Assembly (NCBI GenBank): GCA_000165345.1
Contig: CM000431.1
Location: 160,001 to 224,000 of the forward strand
Direction: 5' to 3'
Length of the DNA: 64,000 bases
Part shown: positions 6,501 through 21,851 of the stretch, one piece after another
Position numbering within the stretch: position 1 is the stretch's first letter
How the letters are laid out: every line of letters starts with the position of its first letter
Position numbers and translations under genes: made by a program
The notes under the pieces: model-generated
The model's input: the letters and a program-made list of their open reading frames with translations, nothing else
Database searches by the model: none
What the model was told of the DNA's origin: nothing

Positions 6501-8153
6501 TTACTTTCTTCTTGAGCTAAAATTACACGATGGAACCCCCATGAACTGCTCAGCTGTATAACGTTTAAGTATCTTGCATGCTTCTAACAAAGCTTGCTTT
6601 TGGTCGATAAATCTACAGGGATATTTGTCGATTTCCTGATGTAATCTTCTAGTTTTTTTGTTAACTCTTTTAACTCTACATGATTCCCACTGATGGACGC
6701 TTCTAATAGCTGCCTTTAGTTTGCTAAGCTTCATGTTATAATACTTAATGAGCGACCTTATATTATTTATATCATCAGGCTTAACATCTTCACTAAAAAT
6801 CTTTTCTTCTTCCGGTAGAAATGATGGTGGCTTAGCAGGAGCAGTAAGTGGGTCTAAAATTCTAAAATCTAATAGGCCTATATCTTCATATGGTCTTCTC
6901 TCATACTTTCTACATGGATCATTTTCATATTGGATTTCATGGCTGTTCATAGAAATTGTATTCCCGATATCAATAATTTTCATAGAAGTTGGAGTAACTG
7001 CAGCTAATTCAAACATTGTATTAATAGTCTTCCATTTATCAGAACCAAAGTTTGGATCAATGGAAATCATAATATTTCTAGTATGCAAATCACAATGGAC
7101 TTTATTACCATTTTGTAACATGAACATAGCGGCAGTATAAAAAGGAAGCCATATTCCTCTAAGCATCCTTCTATACCATCTACCTACCTGTACCTTTTGC
7201 TCTTGGAATTCCTTCCCAATTAATAAATCATATAATAAGTTTTCATCCTTTAAAACAACAATAACTTTAATATAAGGAATGGCATCCAATTTTTCAATAA
7301 AAAGCATTTCATTAAATACTTCGTTCCCATTTTTATCATTAATGACATAATACTTGGGATGGAGACTCACTCTGACTTCGGGAGTTTTAGAATTTGCTTT
7401 ATAAGAATAACTTAATTGAGAAATTCTCATAGCTCTCTCCAGTTCATTGTAAAGTCTTGCAGGACGAAGGTTAAAGTAGGTATCAATTTTTGCCAAGATA
7501 TGAAAGGATGTGATTGGTTGTACTTTGCTTCCCACAGAACAGTCATATAATTTTTGAGCTAAATCAGGGTTTTTTGGATCCCCCTTTAAAACTTGATTAC
7601 GTGGGAGTACTAAGCAATTCTCCATAACAGTATATTGTAATGTTGAAGTAACAAAGAGTATTGCATATACAAGAGCTGAATTTGCTCCTTCCAAGTTCAA
7701 CTTCCAATTCACCAAAACAGTTTTCTCAGAACTACCTTCTACAGCTTTTTTGGTAATTTGATTAATTTGTGGAACAGATACAACCTTCTGATTCTTATCA
7801 CTTTCACATTTCAAGAAGAAGAATTTCTTTTTGCCTTCTCCTTTAAGAACATTTTGTCCATTACAAATCTCCACAACTCTACCTATACTATGTGCTTTCA
7901 TCGGATTGATACCTCTCAACTCCTCAACCGAGTTTATGCCTTCTTCTCCAGCAGAGTTGGACTCCTTCTTCGAGGAGTCTGAAGAGACCTTTGAAGTACC
8001 TTGAGGAGTTAATCCAGATCTTTTTCTTAGACCACTTTTGTTTCCAGATCTAGAATCGGCAGCTTTGACTATTGATAATTCCTGAATTAAAGTAATCCAT
8101 AGTATCAGTTGTAGTAATAGCAGAACCAAACTGGATTCCTTCACAAAATTCAT
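6501..8153 (-). CDS. Secreted protein with a protein-kinase-like domain (APH/choline-kinase-like fold). An N-terminal signal peptide is followed by a catalytic-loop-like HCDLHTRNIMI and a DFG-like IIDIGNT.
   Basis: 550-aa ORF. The N-terminus MNFVKESSLVLLLLQLILWITLIQ is a classic signal peptide. HCDLHTRNIM resembles the HGDLHPGN catalytic loop of APH/ChoK/atypical kinases, and KIIDIGN sits at the position of the metal-binding DxG. The basic region after the signal peptide is Ser/Lys-rich. Confidence 0.5.
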   Translation of the reverse strand: MNFVKESSLVLLLLQLILWITLIQELSIVKAADSRSGNKSGLRKRSGLTPQGTSKVSSDSSKKESNSAGEEGINSVEELRGINPMKAHSIGRVVEICNGQNVLKGEGKKKFFFLKCESDKNQKVVSVPQINQITKKAVEGSSEKTVLVNWKLNLEGANSALVYAILFVTSTLQYTVMENCLVLPRNQVLKGDPKNPDLAQKLYDCSVGSKVQPITSFHILAKIDTYFNLRPARLYNELERAMRISQLSYSYKANSKTPEVRVSLHPKYYVINDKNGNEVFNEMLFIEKLDAIPYIKVIVVLKDENLLYDLLIGKEFQEQKVQVGRWYRRMLRGIWLPFYTAAMFMLQNGNKVHCDLHTRNIMISIDPNFGSDKWKTINTMFELAAVTPTSMKIIDIGNTISMNSHEIQYENDPCRKYERRPYEDIGLLDFRILDPLTAPAKPPSFLPEEEKIFSEDVKPDDINNIRSLIKYYNMKLSKLKAAIRSVHQWESCRVKRVNKKTRRLHQEIDKYPCRFIDQKQALLEACKILKRYTAEQFMGVPSCNFSSRRK

Positions 8154-8823
8154 TTTAAGCCTAACTAATAGACATAAATTTACTATTATTAAGCTTCCAT
8201 ATAAAATTCAACTATATATTGATTTTGAAAAATAATATTATGTGCCATTCACTCTAAGATAACAATCTTGTGAACCTGTTTCTGGTTAAACTACTAAAAA
8301 AAAATTCTTTTAACAATTTATTATCTTAGTTTTGTGTATAATTTCGCTAATTAATCTTTGTTTTTAATATTTTCATTTACCTTTGATTTCCCTTTTAAAC
8401 ATGCGTGCATAAAAGTGTTTATTTGTATGTGTGACACACACCAATCTTCTCAACAACGGCAAAAATAACAACCTTATTTGTCAGTATTCCTTTTTATTCA
8501 TTCATTCCTAACTTTTTTTTCTTATATTTTAAGTCTTATTTATAATCCTTTTCAAAATATTAATCTAACATTTATTCTATTAATCATGAGATCTCAATTT
8601 ACGCGCCTAAATTACTAGATCATAATAAAATAATTAATATACAAGTTGAAAGAAAAAAAAAGGAGCTATCGTTATTCAAACTCCTAGTTTATTCTCTTTT
8701 TTCTTCTAAGTTTGTTTTTAATTCTCTCAAATTTAACAATAGTTGTCTATTCTAATATGGTCGCATATAATCTTTTTCGTATTTCTTCTTATCCCACGTT
8801 AATTGATTATTTCTATTTTGTCA

Positions 8824-20500: not shown

Positions 20501-21851
20501 TTTCAATAGAAACCATATGAAAAAGAAGATGGGAAAATTACATGATAGATTCTTGAGTGGATTTGATGTAGAGATTAGAAAAGGAATGATAACAGCTTTA
20601 TCAGCAATATATACTAACTTTGGGGATTCTGGTCCTCCTCCAAAGGTAAGAACAGTACTTGGATCAAATCAAGTAGGGTCAGGTTCAGCCCCAATAACTG
20701 ATAGAAACACTCCATGGGGTCATGCAAATGCAAATGGAGATGTAAGTACTGGAGATGAGTATTCGTGCGAGGAAGGAACAAAACTTACTCAAATAACTAT
20801 GGCTTATAAGAGGAACTCTATAGAACAGAAACAAGAATTAATAGGTTTGAGGATTACTTGTAATGATGAAGATTATGAGCAAGTTGGAATGTGGGATGTT
20901 TCAGATAATAATTATATTCTTGTAGAGGAAACCTTTGGACTGAGGGAAAAAGAGTTTATAATAGCGATAGGAGGAACCAGGATTGATAAGACTCATAGTA
21001 TAGGAAAACTCTATTTTGAGACAAATCTTCTAAGACAGTTTGGGGAATGGCAGCATTATTATGTGGAGGCAAAAACAAGAGGAGATGGGTTGTATGGATT
21101 TGAATTGTTATTTGAGAAGACAGGAGATTATACAACTCCAATAGCAATGCTATTACCATTGTTCAGACCAACTTCAATGGATACAAGGAGTGAAGATTTG
21201 GAAGAGAAGAAATATAAATCTCCATTTGAATTACCAAAAGCAGTAGCAGAGTCATCAGAGGAAGCAAATGAGCAAGAAATGAGAGGAATGTTAAGTTCTC
21301 CAACAATTGTTACAGATTGGATTGGATTGGACATTGGAAGCTTAGAGATGGATGGAATTTGGTGTAAGACTTCAAGGCTAAAGTTGGATGGAAGAATGAC
21401 TTGGGAAGATTGGAGGAACTCAAGAATGACAGGATTGAGAGTATATAATGATGGAGACCACATTAAAGGAATAGCTCTTCAATGTGGGAATTCTTGGTTA
21501 GAGGAGGCAAATCTTGGTCTAGTTGGCCCGAAGTTCCATTTTGATGAAATTAGTGATTGTTTGGAGAGTGATGCTGATTATATAGAGAATATTGAAGTTG
21601 CTATTGATTCTAGAGGTATTCCGGCAGGGTTTAAAGTATTTAGCCACGTTAAGAGGCAGAAGAAAGTTTTAATTAATAATAATTCTATGGTGACTTGGCA
21701 ATCAAATGTTCCAGATTCAGGAAATCACTATGCTTCAGGCATTCATGTTGAATACGACCCTGATACTAATATTATATTCAGAGTTAGAATAGTCTATCGT
21801 CCAATTTCAATTGCAGAAGACCCTGAGGAAAATGTCGGGTTTATATTTTAA
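17529..21851 (+). CDS. Large secreted protein (about 1430 aa) built from at least seven tandem copies of a Cys-containing module of roughly 130-180 aa. The module may be lectin-like or another beta-sandwich; it is an unknown family.
   Basis: The likely start is the second ATG at 17562 (MKALFLAFLIIFIGGWGGG, a signal peptide). Each module has C-x2-G-x-[PR]-[LI]-T-[GA]-[LV]-R followed about 15-25 aa later by [VI]-x-G-[LI]-x-[LI]-x-C-[GND] (for example ETKCPTGVPLTGLRLIM...LVSLSIQCGD; ETSCPPGIPITAVRMWF...LVGLRIRCGS; FCAPGSRLTGLLVHT...IIGLTLICDG; YSCEEGTKLTQITMAY...LIGLRITCND; RMTGLRVYNDGDHIKGIALQCGN). Confidence 0.6.
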   Translation: MRKSEKCRKEIMKALFLAFLIIFIGGWGGGKLVRVESLKTSAKRYQERERVPSRLPPPREEPPVFQRYLYSYPKDYGYYFFNRISDSNYWDRINGENKQIPIEGWQWDNTSNNWLWGPLRNQDGTPLLPLSPELEAPRAYVGPTRIYGPIQVDDLPIPRVLDIICKPYESLIGIRAWFPNPESKGRKDLRGIQFLCSSPLDTRVKGGSKHSTWSRIMGNVGPNLKKYTVLTRPEDPFVKIRVFVETLNPVKHQSQRELVIPTYQGPRLVYIDNQEEALEKGPIYLIRRITLRTKNNHLSFLGKAGGNLPSVVESAPEGYELSGFRILISGYPRSKWRGADFSTLAYRNSISLGFLFSKTEDILSRPQVIYGRRGYDFQDIKCDGKITGLQGFFMGNRGLVGIKVECDRVWQEVILGITEGTDYKALVGSMISAVTLHLSPEKFIQSLVVFSTTGRQQKLGDDWVTPTIRSSKSEGGGRGKILQGIFAELDKTGAISGIGFHWKKPPKPGQAGDREDYGNLEVSESPLEGGDTGSLGNSSKKEIVPRSSFYGRVAKDCPILETKCPTGVPLTGLRLIMRKGETQPKPFKMYLVSLSIQCGDEFFKPVGNPNLIEAGKKRTYDILIHEEDPVVDFRVYLGDLGLPHLFDLRFKHDVLSSYELYGFRVAMMIRSERIGAIAPLYRVATPIDLPPITAKDISIRLFGAVRPESDPDVVVLETSCPPGIPITAVRMWFVRKIEGNNVFSRLVGLRIRCGSKWRKTKLGSSMGDRFEAEVESGDFFSRSFVENQSEKPFYVSGIMLVTLENRKSSFGETGTEIMKKLASGDVESEIYGFIGQETPEGLVSIGFLERKANYDDYPTFNDIEVAPYQVSASDIQGESEGSLNEEKLIESGIVNFRPGEEWFGRRGLGGSHAEETFCAPGSRLTGLLVHTSTKIPHSIIGLTLICDGKPLNPVGSTLGDIARYEIPMNEPIEKVEVVLNKEDRSLSRLKLFNRNHMKKKMGKLHDRFLSGFDVEIRKGMITALSAIYTNFGDSGPPPKVRTVLGSNQVGSGSAPITDRNTPWGHANANGDVSTGDEYSCEEGTKLTQITMAYKRNSIEQKQELIGLRITCNDEDYEQVGMWDVSDNNYILVEETFGLREKEFIIAIGGTRIDKTHSIGKLYFETNLLRQFGEWQHYYVEAKTRGDGLYGFELLFEKTGDYTTPIAMLLPLFRPTSMDTRSEDLEEKKYKSPFELPKAVAESSEEANEQEMRGMLSSPTIVTDWIGLDIGSLEMDGIWCKTSRLKLDGRMTWEDWRNSRMTGLRVYNDGDHIKGIALQCGNSWLEEANLGLVGPKFHFDEISDCLESDADYIENIEVAIDSRGIPAGFKVFSHVKRQKKVLINNNSMVTWQSNVPDSGNHYASGIHVEYDPDTNIIFRVRIVYRPISIAEDPEENVGFIF

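Follow-up and report, generated by a model that had tools for sequence, protein, structure and literature searches.

The window, a 64-kb stretch of chromosome 3 (~1.1 Mb) of Cryptosporidium parvum Iowa II that covers approximately 162–226 kb and the genes cgd3_530 to cgd3_720, carried a dense run of genes for secretory and membrane proteins. Among the 19 protein-coding genes in the window, 13 encoded signal-peptide proteins, five encoded polytopic membrane proteins and one encoded a cytosolic-looking protein, an acyl-CoA synthetase. One of the signal-peptide genes, cgd3_600, is listed in two papers as CpDG1 (DG1 below), among the first validated dense-granule markers, and its product was found to contain jacalin-like repeats. 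Signal-peptide-like N-termini, synteny, non-paralogy and sequence constraint were also observed. The run is interpreted here, with moderate confidence, as an ancient and genus-conserved neighbourhood (cgd3_520/530 to cgd3_720) of unrelated, single-copy and mostly secretory-pathway genes, and not as an operon, a tandem family or a fast-evolving virulence island. As part of this interpretation, and held with the same confidence, the destinations and stages of action of the products probably differ between the genes of the block. All genes of the window have been annotated since 2004 and DG1 was already published. What is new is the internal, conserved and non-paralogous run together with the jacalin-like repeat architecture of DG1, neither of which was found stated in the literature covered.

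Classical gene identifiers were set by placing the quantitative PCR (qPCR) primers of Mauzy et al. 2012 (PMC3305300, supplement) on the window, which identified cgd3_530, 560, 570, 580, 590, 600, 610, 630, 640, 660, 670, 680 and 710. The identifiers cgd3_540, 550, 650, 690 and 700 were given from position only. The four transmembrane (TM) segments and hydrolase domain described for cgd3_590 (PMC11809919) match the architecture of the gene at 13488–17009, which gives independent support for this mapping. The coordinates of neighbouring loci in C. hominis LN877949.1 and in a second C. parvum assembly, CM109963.1, showed that the position is internal, ~160 kb from the chromosome end. The window was AT-rich (G+C ~31%) with long open reading frames (ORFs), the majority without introns. 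Of 16 ORF products looked up by exact sequence, 14 were identical to C. parvum Iowa II proteins.

Secretory and membrane proteins in the window

The original prediction, made from the letters of the window alone, had described a block in which at least 12 genes start with a signal peptide, five more encode polytopic membrane proteins and two look cytosolic. All ORFs that it named were present at their coordinates. Signal peptides were called by a heuristic of hydrophobicity and the (−3, −1) rule, more liberal than SignalP 4, that asked for a short n-region, a hydrophobic h-region 7–15 residues long inside the first ~30, and small residues at both −3 and −1. Eleven ORFs showed an N-terminal h-region of this kind (Kyte-Doolittle mean over eight residues 2.7–3.6, starting at residue 5–18) with small −3/−1 residues after it, at 6501–8153(−), 9085–10428, 10792–12858, 17562–21851, 26754–27701(−), 32547–35138(−), 35603–38251(−), 40540–42288, 50063–53200, 53618–57580 and 58067 onward. 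The cathepsin gene was the 12th signal-peptide gene, with an upstream first exon from 44211(−) and the hydrophobic N-terminus MTVILSLSNPQFLVFALFQILMILSIINVSL.

Under a stricter rule, nine of these N-termini passed compared to 3 of 172 internal methionine positions of the same proteins, so the AT-rich, hydrophobic-codon-rich composition was not the source of the signal. The two that failed, at 50063 and 53618, had canonical signal peptides in their C. ryanae / C. felis counterparts. The product at 53618 carries the source name 'signal peptide-containing protein', a label that several of the signal-peptide products bear in independent annotations. In the orthologues of C. muris, C. bovis, C. ryanae and C. 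felis, the start position was homologous and the N-terminus hydrophobic, which argues that the starts in the window are not mis-called. The concern that hydrophobic stretches might merely reflect wrongly chosen starts was thus settled in favour of the starts with the orthologues of four Cryptosporidium species.

The heuristic gave 12 signal-peptide genes out of 19, or 13 when full-length cgd3_530 was included, in agreement with the predicted minimum of 12. The five polytopic membrane proteins were also confirmed by Pfam and by hydrophobic segments as two MFS-like proteins, two four-TM proteins and one ABC transporter. Of the supposed cytosolic pair, the acyl-CoA synthetase had no secretory or membrane signal, but the other gene, 5'-partial in the window, is cgd3_530, whose full-length product of 2285 aa has an N-terminal signal peptide (11675–18532(−) in L007, the locus left of the window). 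Its left neighbour, cgd3_520 (683 aa, L007 19405–21456(+)), showed a signal peptide and faint PAN/apple matches; with both genes, the secretory run reaches past the window. Pfam searches over the window proteins recovered AMP-binding, ABC, DUF900, weak MFS and borderline GST_C domains. The MORN repeats that had been proposed for the gene at 13488–17009 were not recovered by Pfam, which instead recovered DUF900. Most signal-peptide proteins had no Pfam domain, and a low-threshold scan (E ≤ 1) of them gave sub-threshold noise only, in line with the earlier description of many of these proteins as having no recognisable domains. The high density of secretory and membrane genes in this stretch is a real feature.

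Published counts for C. parvum are 397 signal-peptide and 832 TM proteins, ~10% and ~22% of the genome (PMC6532270), and a gene total of ~3805 was derived from the gene density in the same source. The signal-peptide share in the window was ~6 times the genome background. The hypergeometric probability of 12–13 signal-peptide genes out of 19 was P = 4e-8 to 2e-9, and ≤1.4e-4 when corrected for every sliding window. For 'signal peptide or TM' (17–18 of 19), the corrected P was ≤1e-3 even under the largest possible union background. The published signal-peptide share of ~10% lies well below that of the window, which speaks against an equal proportion of secreted proteins genome-wide, the outcome named at the outset as damaging to the prediction; this holds unless the background is 25% or more. 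The enrichment of secretory genes in the window is probably real.

Chance would account for the run if secretory and membrane genes were common in a compact genome and this were one 64-kb window of ~140, picked after the fact. With a background of 25% and correction over all sliding windows, P would be ~0.3–1, and unrelated gene functions, mixed expression timing and a block split in the C. ryanae lineage without obvious gene loss are all consistent with such an origin. The corrected P values from the published SignalP count (397 in ~3805) and from the maximal union background argue in the other direction, as do the continuation of the run into cgd3_520 and a silent-then-on expression profile common to seven of the 11 assayed signal-peptide genes. 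A chance origin is considered unlikely.

Gene order, constraint and expression

All-versus-all BLASTP (E ≤ 0.01) showed no similarity among the signal-peptide proteins, so the block is not a tandem family. The sole cross-match was between the two MFS genes cgd3_540 and cgd3_550 (20% identity, E = 7e-4). The genes from cgd3_560 to cgd3_660 were arranged as (−)560, (+)570, (+)580, (+)590, (+)600, tRNA-Glu, (+)610, (−)620/630, (+)640, (−)650 and (−)660. This order and orientation were identical in C. hominis, C. ubiquitum, C. bovis and C. muris, as was the gene content, and C. muris, a gastric species and the most distant one examined, also kept the signal peptides of cgd3_560–cgd3_660. Further to the right, cgd3_660–cgd3_700 were kept in C. 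felis up to the contig end, and the order of cgd3_670–cgd3_720 was kept in C. ryanae with 5S rRNA genes upstream of cgd3_670.

Identity to C. muris was compared with the proteome mean of ~47% (PMC6532270). It was above the mean for cgd3_610 (65%), cgd3_590 (63%), DG1 (60%), cgd3_640 (56%) and cgd3_560 (54%), and below it for cgd3_570 (34%; 33.5%), cgd3_650 (31%) and cgd3_580 (27%). The ratio of non-synonymous to synonymous substitution rates (dN/dS) was calculated pairwise by the Nei-Gojobori method for six genes of C. parvum against C. hominis and C. ubiquitum. Five of the six (cgd3_580, 590, 600, 610 and 640) ranged from 0.03 to 0.22: against C. hominis and C. ubiquitum respectively, the values were 0.22 and 0.16 for cgd3_580, 0.08 and 0.06 for cgd3_590, 0.07 and 0.08 for DG1 and 0.03 and 0.06 for cgd3_610, with 0.07 against C. 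hominis for cgd3_640. The highest value belonged to cgd3_570, with 0.78 against C. hominis, resting on very few substitutions (dN 0.017, dS 0.022), and 0.22 against C. ubiquitum. The conserved order and the constraint across the genus indicate that the block is ancient, with most members constrained and a minority faster than average.

The original prediction had likened the block to lineage-specific secretory, surface or invasion-organelle gene clusters of parasitic protists. Its secretory part stands, with a dense secretory run and a validated dense-granule protein (DG1), but the block is not a family cluster, and the lineage-specific, fast-evolving part was not supported, given the synteny to C. 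muris, the lack of paralogy and the low dN/dS in five of six genes. The proposed search of related genomes for lineage-restricted, fast genes had a divided outcome: gene order was kept genus-wide, whereas DG1 and cgd3_560 were genus-only and cgd3_570, 580 and 650 were below the mean identity. For DG1 and cgd3_560, the two proteins tested, no relatives were detectable outside Cryptosporidium. The two appear, from their sequences, to be 'lineage-specific' at the level of the genus and not fast-evolving.

An explanation closer to that first description is that the block is a lineage-specific and fast-evolving secretory or invasion-organelle cluster, with host-interaction factors under diversifying selection as in the SKSR, MEDLE and FLGN families or the Plasmodium exported families. 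The absence of Pfam domains in most signal-peptide proteins, the genus-restricted DG1 and cgd3_560, the identities of 27–34% for cgd3_570, 580 and 650, the dN/dS of 0.78 for cgd3_570, the indels and single-nucleotide polymorphisms (SNPs) for which cgd3_720 is a hotspot, and the action of DG1 at the host interface would all fit such a cluster. However, the block has no paralogy and is internal instead of subtelomeric, C. muris has the same gene content and order, and DG1, cgd3_560, 590 and 610 are conserved above average. DG1, 590 and 610 had dN/dS ≤0.08 against both C. hominis and C. ubiquitum, while the 0.78 of cgd3_570 came from few substitutions and fell to 0.22 against C. ubiquitum. In addition, five or six genes of the block encode membrane proteins or enzymes of a housekeeping, pan-apicomplexan kind, among which are a PfQRP1 orthologue, ABC and MFS transporters and a cathepsin L. 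A fast-evolving cluster of this sort is judged quite unlikely.

Expression was taken from a published qPCR time course with four replicates and noisy values (PMC3305300). Almost no signal at 2 and 6 h, onset from 12 h and a peak usually at 36–48 h were reported for cgd3_530, 560, 580, 600, 620, 630 and 710, so that seven of the 11 assayed signal-peptide genes were silent at 2–6 h and on from 12 h. In the same data, cgd3_570 was silent at 2 h and on from 6 h. For the genes without a signal peptide, cgd3_610 and 640 were highest at 2 h and cgd3_590 was on from 6 h. Apical-organelle genes have been assigned to the 12-h immature-meront class (PMC3305300), and the 12-h onset fits 'just-in-time' synthesis of secretory cargo in merogony for part of the block. 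Stage-specific co-expression, which had been suggested as a check, was partial in these data: seven genes had a 12-h onset, the others differed and the pattern was not uniform over the block. The timing data do not show a single regulon.

Several observations weigh against a conserved secretory neighbourhood. The block is rearranged in C. ryanae between cgd3_660 and the half that holds the 5S genes and cgd3_670: to the left of the 5S/cgd3_670 group (L005 1–3390) lie an ITFG1/FG-GAP-like gene and a CDPK gene and not cgd3_660/650, so the two halves are separable and contiguity of the whole block is not required. The enrichment also depends on the background, since a signal-peptide background of 20% would raise the corrected P to 0.02–0.18 and from 25% upwards significance is lost once scanning is corrected for. 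Co-expression is partial, with cgd3_660 and cgd3_670 detected early, cgd3_680 rising at 48–72 h and cgd3_720 detected only from 48 h, in qPCR replicates that are noisy (PMC3305300); the timing of cgd3_720 fits a sexual-stage or late role. When 14 upstream regions were screened for promoter motifs and shared k-mers, no motif was common to the signal-peptide genes. Finally, a published localisation was found for DG1 alone, the primary spatial-proteomics dataset lying outside the literature covered.

In the mechanism proposed for the conserved neighbourhood, each product would enter the endoplasmic reticulum by its own N-terminal signal peptide or TM segments and would then be sorted individually. 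The genes would be clustered because an ancestral order was kept, with shared stage-specific transcription as a possible aid, since many of the genes switch on at ~12 h, when meronts build their secretory organelles.

A co-regulated chromatin domain or polycistronic unit could instead keep the genes together, with secretory-organelle cargo made jointly in merogony. Five consecutive co-directional genes are found at 9085–24276, the first four separated by gaps of 0.36–0.63 kb, C. parvum has been reported to produce polycistronic transcripts, and the palindrome TGCATGCA, an AP2-type motif, was found upstream of cgd3_560/570, 590 and 600 only (8154–9084, 12859–13487 and 17010–17561). The seven signal-peptide genes silent at 2–6 h and on from 12 h, the 2-h peak of 610 and 640 and the gene order conserved across the genus also speak for this explanation. 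Timing differs within the block, however: the co-directional cgd3_610 peaks at 2 h when cgd3_600 is silent, and cgd3_680 and 720 are late. The upstream regions have no common motif, and synteny in Cryptosporidium is high genome-wide (PMC6532270), which makes the conserved order weak evidence for co-regulation. A jointly regulated unit is highly improbable.

A broader proposal is that selection has maintained a 'secretory neighbourhood' of at least cgd3_520–cgd3_720 (~75 kb with the giant gene) as a chromatin or transcription domain that predates the gastric/intestinal split and co-ordinates secretory-organelle and interface proteins. Its members would include DG1 as a multi-lectin component of the interface ring, a secreted kinase-like cgd3_560 and a secreted HAD-phosphatase-like cgd3_650. 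This proposal is a long shot.

DG1 and its jacalin-like repeats

DG1 is encoded at 17562–21851 (+; primers at 20123 and 20224) as an all-beta protein of 1429 aa with a signal peptide and at least four jacalin-like repeats. Its dense-granule localisation and its action at the host interface are known from the literature. The Pfam Jacalin profile (PF01419, cut-off 22 bits) matched the DG1 orthologues of C. felis (30.6 bits), C. bovis (35.8 bits) and C. muris (22.4 bits), and the C. parvum protein scored 21.2 bits over aa 1064–1180, under the cut-off. A custom hidden Markov model built from the C. parvum jacalin segment showed three further copies in DG1 at aa 549–608, 697–746 and 900–946, and the repeats are placed at aa 549–608, 697–746, 900–946 and 1054–1191. 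The best match of DG1 in the PDB was the jacalin-fold granule lectin ZG16B, a weak match (E = 0.013). Modelling of aa 520–1429 with seven orthologues in AlphaFold2 gave a predicted local distance difference test score (pLDDT) of 35.5, which is too poor for use. Given the Jacalin matches in the orthologues and the internal copies, the most fitting description of DG1 is that of a secreted protein that carries multiple copies of a jacalin-like repeat.

ZG16 proteins are secretory-granule lectins. DG1 resembles the jacalin-like (beta-prism I) lectins ZG16/ZG16B in the above-cut-off Jacalin matches of its three orthologues and in its best PDB match, ZG16B. Unlike them, DG1 has 1429 aa with at least four degenerate repeats, and its sugar binding is a prediction. 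From its repeats, DG1 may bind glycans at the interface.

Other genes of the block and comparable gene groups

At the left edge of the window, cgd3_530 (2–2416, +; primers at 829 and 918) is represented by the C-terminal 804 aa of the 2285-aa Ser-rich protein, whose N-terminus lies outside the window. The hydrophobic C-terminal tail of the neighbouring cgd3_520 product resembles a glycosylphosphatidylinositol-anchor signal. Both cgd3_530 and cgd3_660 are included in a secretome/transcriptome candidate list. The next two genes, placed by position, encode MFS-like polytopic proteins. These are cgd3_540 (2614–4089, −; Pfam MFS_1 25 bits, below cut-off), with seven hydrophobic segments at a strict threshold and the source name 'protein with 12 transmembrane domains', and cgd3_550 (4602–6083, +; MFS_1 31.9 bits), a weak paralogue of cgd3_540.

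The Cryptosporidium-only gene cgd3_560 (6501–8153, −; identified by primers) encodes a Cys-rich protein of 550 aa with a signal peptide and kinase-like motifs. HCDLHTRN (aa 353–360) and DIGN (aa 395–398), which resemble the kinase catalytic loop and DFG motif, were invariant in 10 orthologues together with many cysteines, and the PDB kinases SIK3/CDPK2 aligned over the catalytic loop at a marginal E of ~0.1. No Pfam match was found for cgd3_560. A profile of its orthologues had no PDB match and, among 1.84e9 proteins, recovered only Cryptosporidium and no kinase at E ≤ 0.001. An AlphaFold2 model with 10 orthologues had a mean pLDDT of 43, too poor for use. A kinase assignment from UniRef names and the conserved motifs was not adopted because the profile searches recovered no kinase. 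It could be that a secreted (pseudo)kinase has diverged very far here, or that the likeness to kinases arose by convergence.

Three further primer-identified genes precede DG1. A basic signal-peptide protein of 447 aa is encoded by cgd3_570 (9085–10428, +), and cgd3_580 (10792–12858, +) encodes a protein of type I topology with a signal peptide and one C-terminal TM segment (aa 604–622). A 90%-identity cluster holding only C. parvum had suggested strong divergence of cgd3_580 from C. hominis; this was ruled out by a direct identity of 96.7%. The product of cgd3_590 (13488–17009, +) has four TM segments and a DUF900 alpha/beta-hydrolase domain (Pfam E = 1.3e-22), and is named as the orthologue of Plasmodium PfQRP1 (PMC11809919). 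Its four N-terminal hydrophobic segments at aa 68–198 and its C-terminal DUF900-type hydrolase domain are those of a PfQRP1-type protein.

A tRNA-Glu(CUC) gene (22377–22450, −) was found between DG1 and the four-TM gene, and C. muris and C. bovis have it there as well. The four-TM protein with Q/N/Y-rich termini is encoded by cgd3_610 (23185–24276, +; identified by primers). It is followed by cgd3_620 and cgd3_630, which are one gene (25450–27701, −). Besides a signal peptide, its product has repeats rich in K/E, an Asn-rich region and a C-terminal domain that is conserved. The earlier reading of 25529–27701 is corrected here, as the ORFs 25529–26776 and 26754–27701 overlap at 26754–26776 with an apparent frameshift of this assembly in the K/E-rich repeat. 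One undivided ORF takes the place of the two in C. hominis (694 aa) and in C. ubiquitum (757 aa), and the qPCR profiles of cgd3_620 and cgd3_630 were identical. N bases (381, scattered singly without a single run) were confined to two low-quality assembly stretches, at 24457–25650 and 51550–52123. The first spans the 3' end of cgd3_620, so the reading frame there is unreliable and the 3' end approximate; the second comes after the (CCT)n poly-proline tract of cgd3_700.

The cytosolic-looking gene is cgd3_640 (29397–31454, +), a long-chain acyl-CoA synthetase (Pfam AMP-binding, E = 4e-54) with no N-terminal hydrophobic core. On its right, cgd3_650 (32547–35138, −; by position) encodes a signal-peptide protein of 863 aa, a candidate HAD/FCP1-like phosphatase. 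It had no Pfam match. A DxDxT motif, LWDVDKTL (aa ~295–310; LWDVD[K/E/R]TL across species), and an LIDD motif (VTVLIDD, aa ~500–510) were conserved in C. muris and C. bovis, and the UniRef name of the C. hominis orthologue, 'FCP1 homology domain-containing', fits these motifs. The motifs suggest that cgd3_650 is a secreted HAD/FCP1-like phosphatase. The neighbouring cgd3_660 (35603–38251, −; identified by primers) encodes a signal-peptide protein of 882 aa with a Ser/Asn-rich tract and no known domain.

Three 5S rRNA genes (Rfam RF00001, 102.5 bits each) were identified between cgd3_660 and cgd3_670 at 38832–38951(+), 39405–39524(−) and 40085–40204(−). The cgd3_670 orthologue likewise has 5S genes upstream of it in C. 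felis, with three copies, and in C. ryanae, with two, and the C. ryanae synteny break sits just left of them. The product of cgd3_670 (40540–42288, +; identified by primers) has a signal peptide and a weak GST-like region (Pfam GST_C_3, 21.5 bits vs a cut-off of 21.6). The cathepsin L-like cysteine protease gene cgd3_680 (42658–44211, −; identified by primers) has several exons, with the catalytic domain on exons 42658–42981 and 43012–43542 and the methionine of the first exon at 44211. It has a hydrophobic N-terminal signal or anchor, Peptidase_C1 was found in its orthologues, and it is listed as cryptopain (PMC6107107).

A polytopic ABC transporter (Pfam ABC_tran and ABC_membrane, and source names) is encoded by cgd3_690 (44904–49664, +; by position). 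It is not the published CpMRP1, which is cgd7_4520. The product of cgd3_700 (50063–53200, +; by position) has a signal peptide and a poly-proline tract of ~45 residues at 51290–51500, followed by an Ala/Pro-rich stretch; the tract was shorter in C. felis and absent in C. ryanae. As a secreted poly-proline protein, it could, as a speculation, bind host profilin, SH3 or WW proteins. Finally, cgd3_710 (53618–57580, +; identified by primers) encodes a K/E-rich signal-peptide protein of 1320 aa with no known domain, and cgd3_720 (58067–64000, +), an ORF open to the window end, gives the first 1978 codons of a 'mucin-like' giant of ~11,700 aa with a signal peptide, whose C. ryanae orthologue has 11,957 aa.

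The subtelomeric SKSR, MEDLE, FLGN and insulinase-like arrays resemble the block in that genes for signal-peptide proteins stand side by side, are specific to Cryptosporidium and encode few recognisable domains. Dense or small granules deliver some of the array products to the host interface or the host cell. The arrays are, however, paralogous, subtelomeric, variable in copy number between species and highly divergent (PMC6532270), whereas the block is non-paralogous and internal, has an unchanged gene content out to C. muris and is mostly under strong purifying selection. A group known here from the literature, ROP1–4 (cgd3_1770/1780/1710/1730) and DG4 (cgd3_1690), is also non-subtelomeric on chromosome 3, with validated secretory-organelle genes close together, and shows that internal groupings of cargo genes do exist in the C. 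parvum genome. Compared to this group, the run in the window is longer and combines soluble cargo with transporters and a late giant protein. As a concept, the nearest counterpart of a 'cluster of secretory genes' is offered by the effector clusters of the fungus Ustilago maydis. In these clusters, reportedly described by Kamper et al. in 2006, genes that encode mostly novel secreted proteins are said to sit next to each other, to be co-induced in infection, to give virulence phenotypes on deletion and to be poorly conserved between species. The present block, in contrast, is conserved genus-wide.

Among the leading causes of diarrhoea in children is Cryptosporidium, whose secreted proteins build an unusual host-parasite interface. 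The window shows that a dense secretory run exists away from the telomeres and is kept across the genus, and that many signal peptides with few known domains do not make a block a fast-evolving virulence island. The conserved, single-copy and Cryptosporidium-only secreted proteins encoded near DG1 (cgd3_560, 570, 580, 620/630, 650, 660, 670, 700 and 710) are candidates for tagging, and the jacalin-like repeats of DG1 suggest a testable glycan-binding role in the interface ring.

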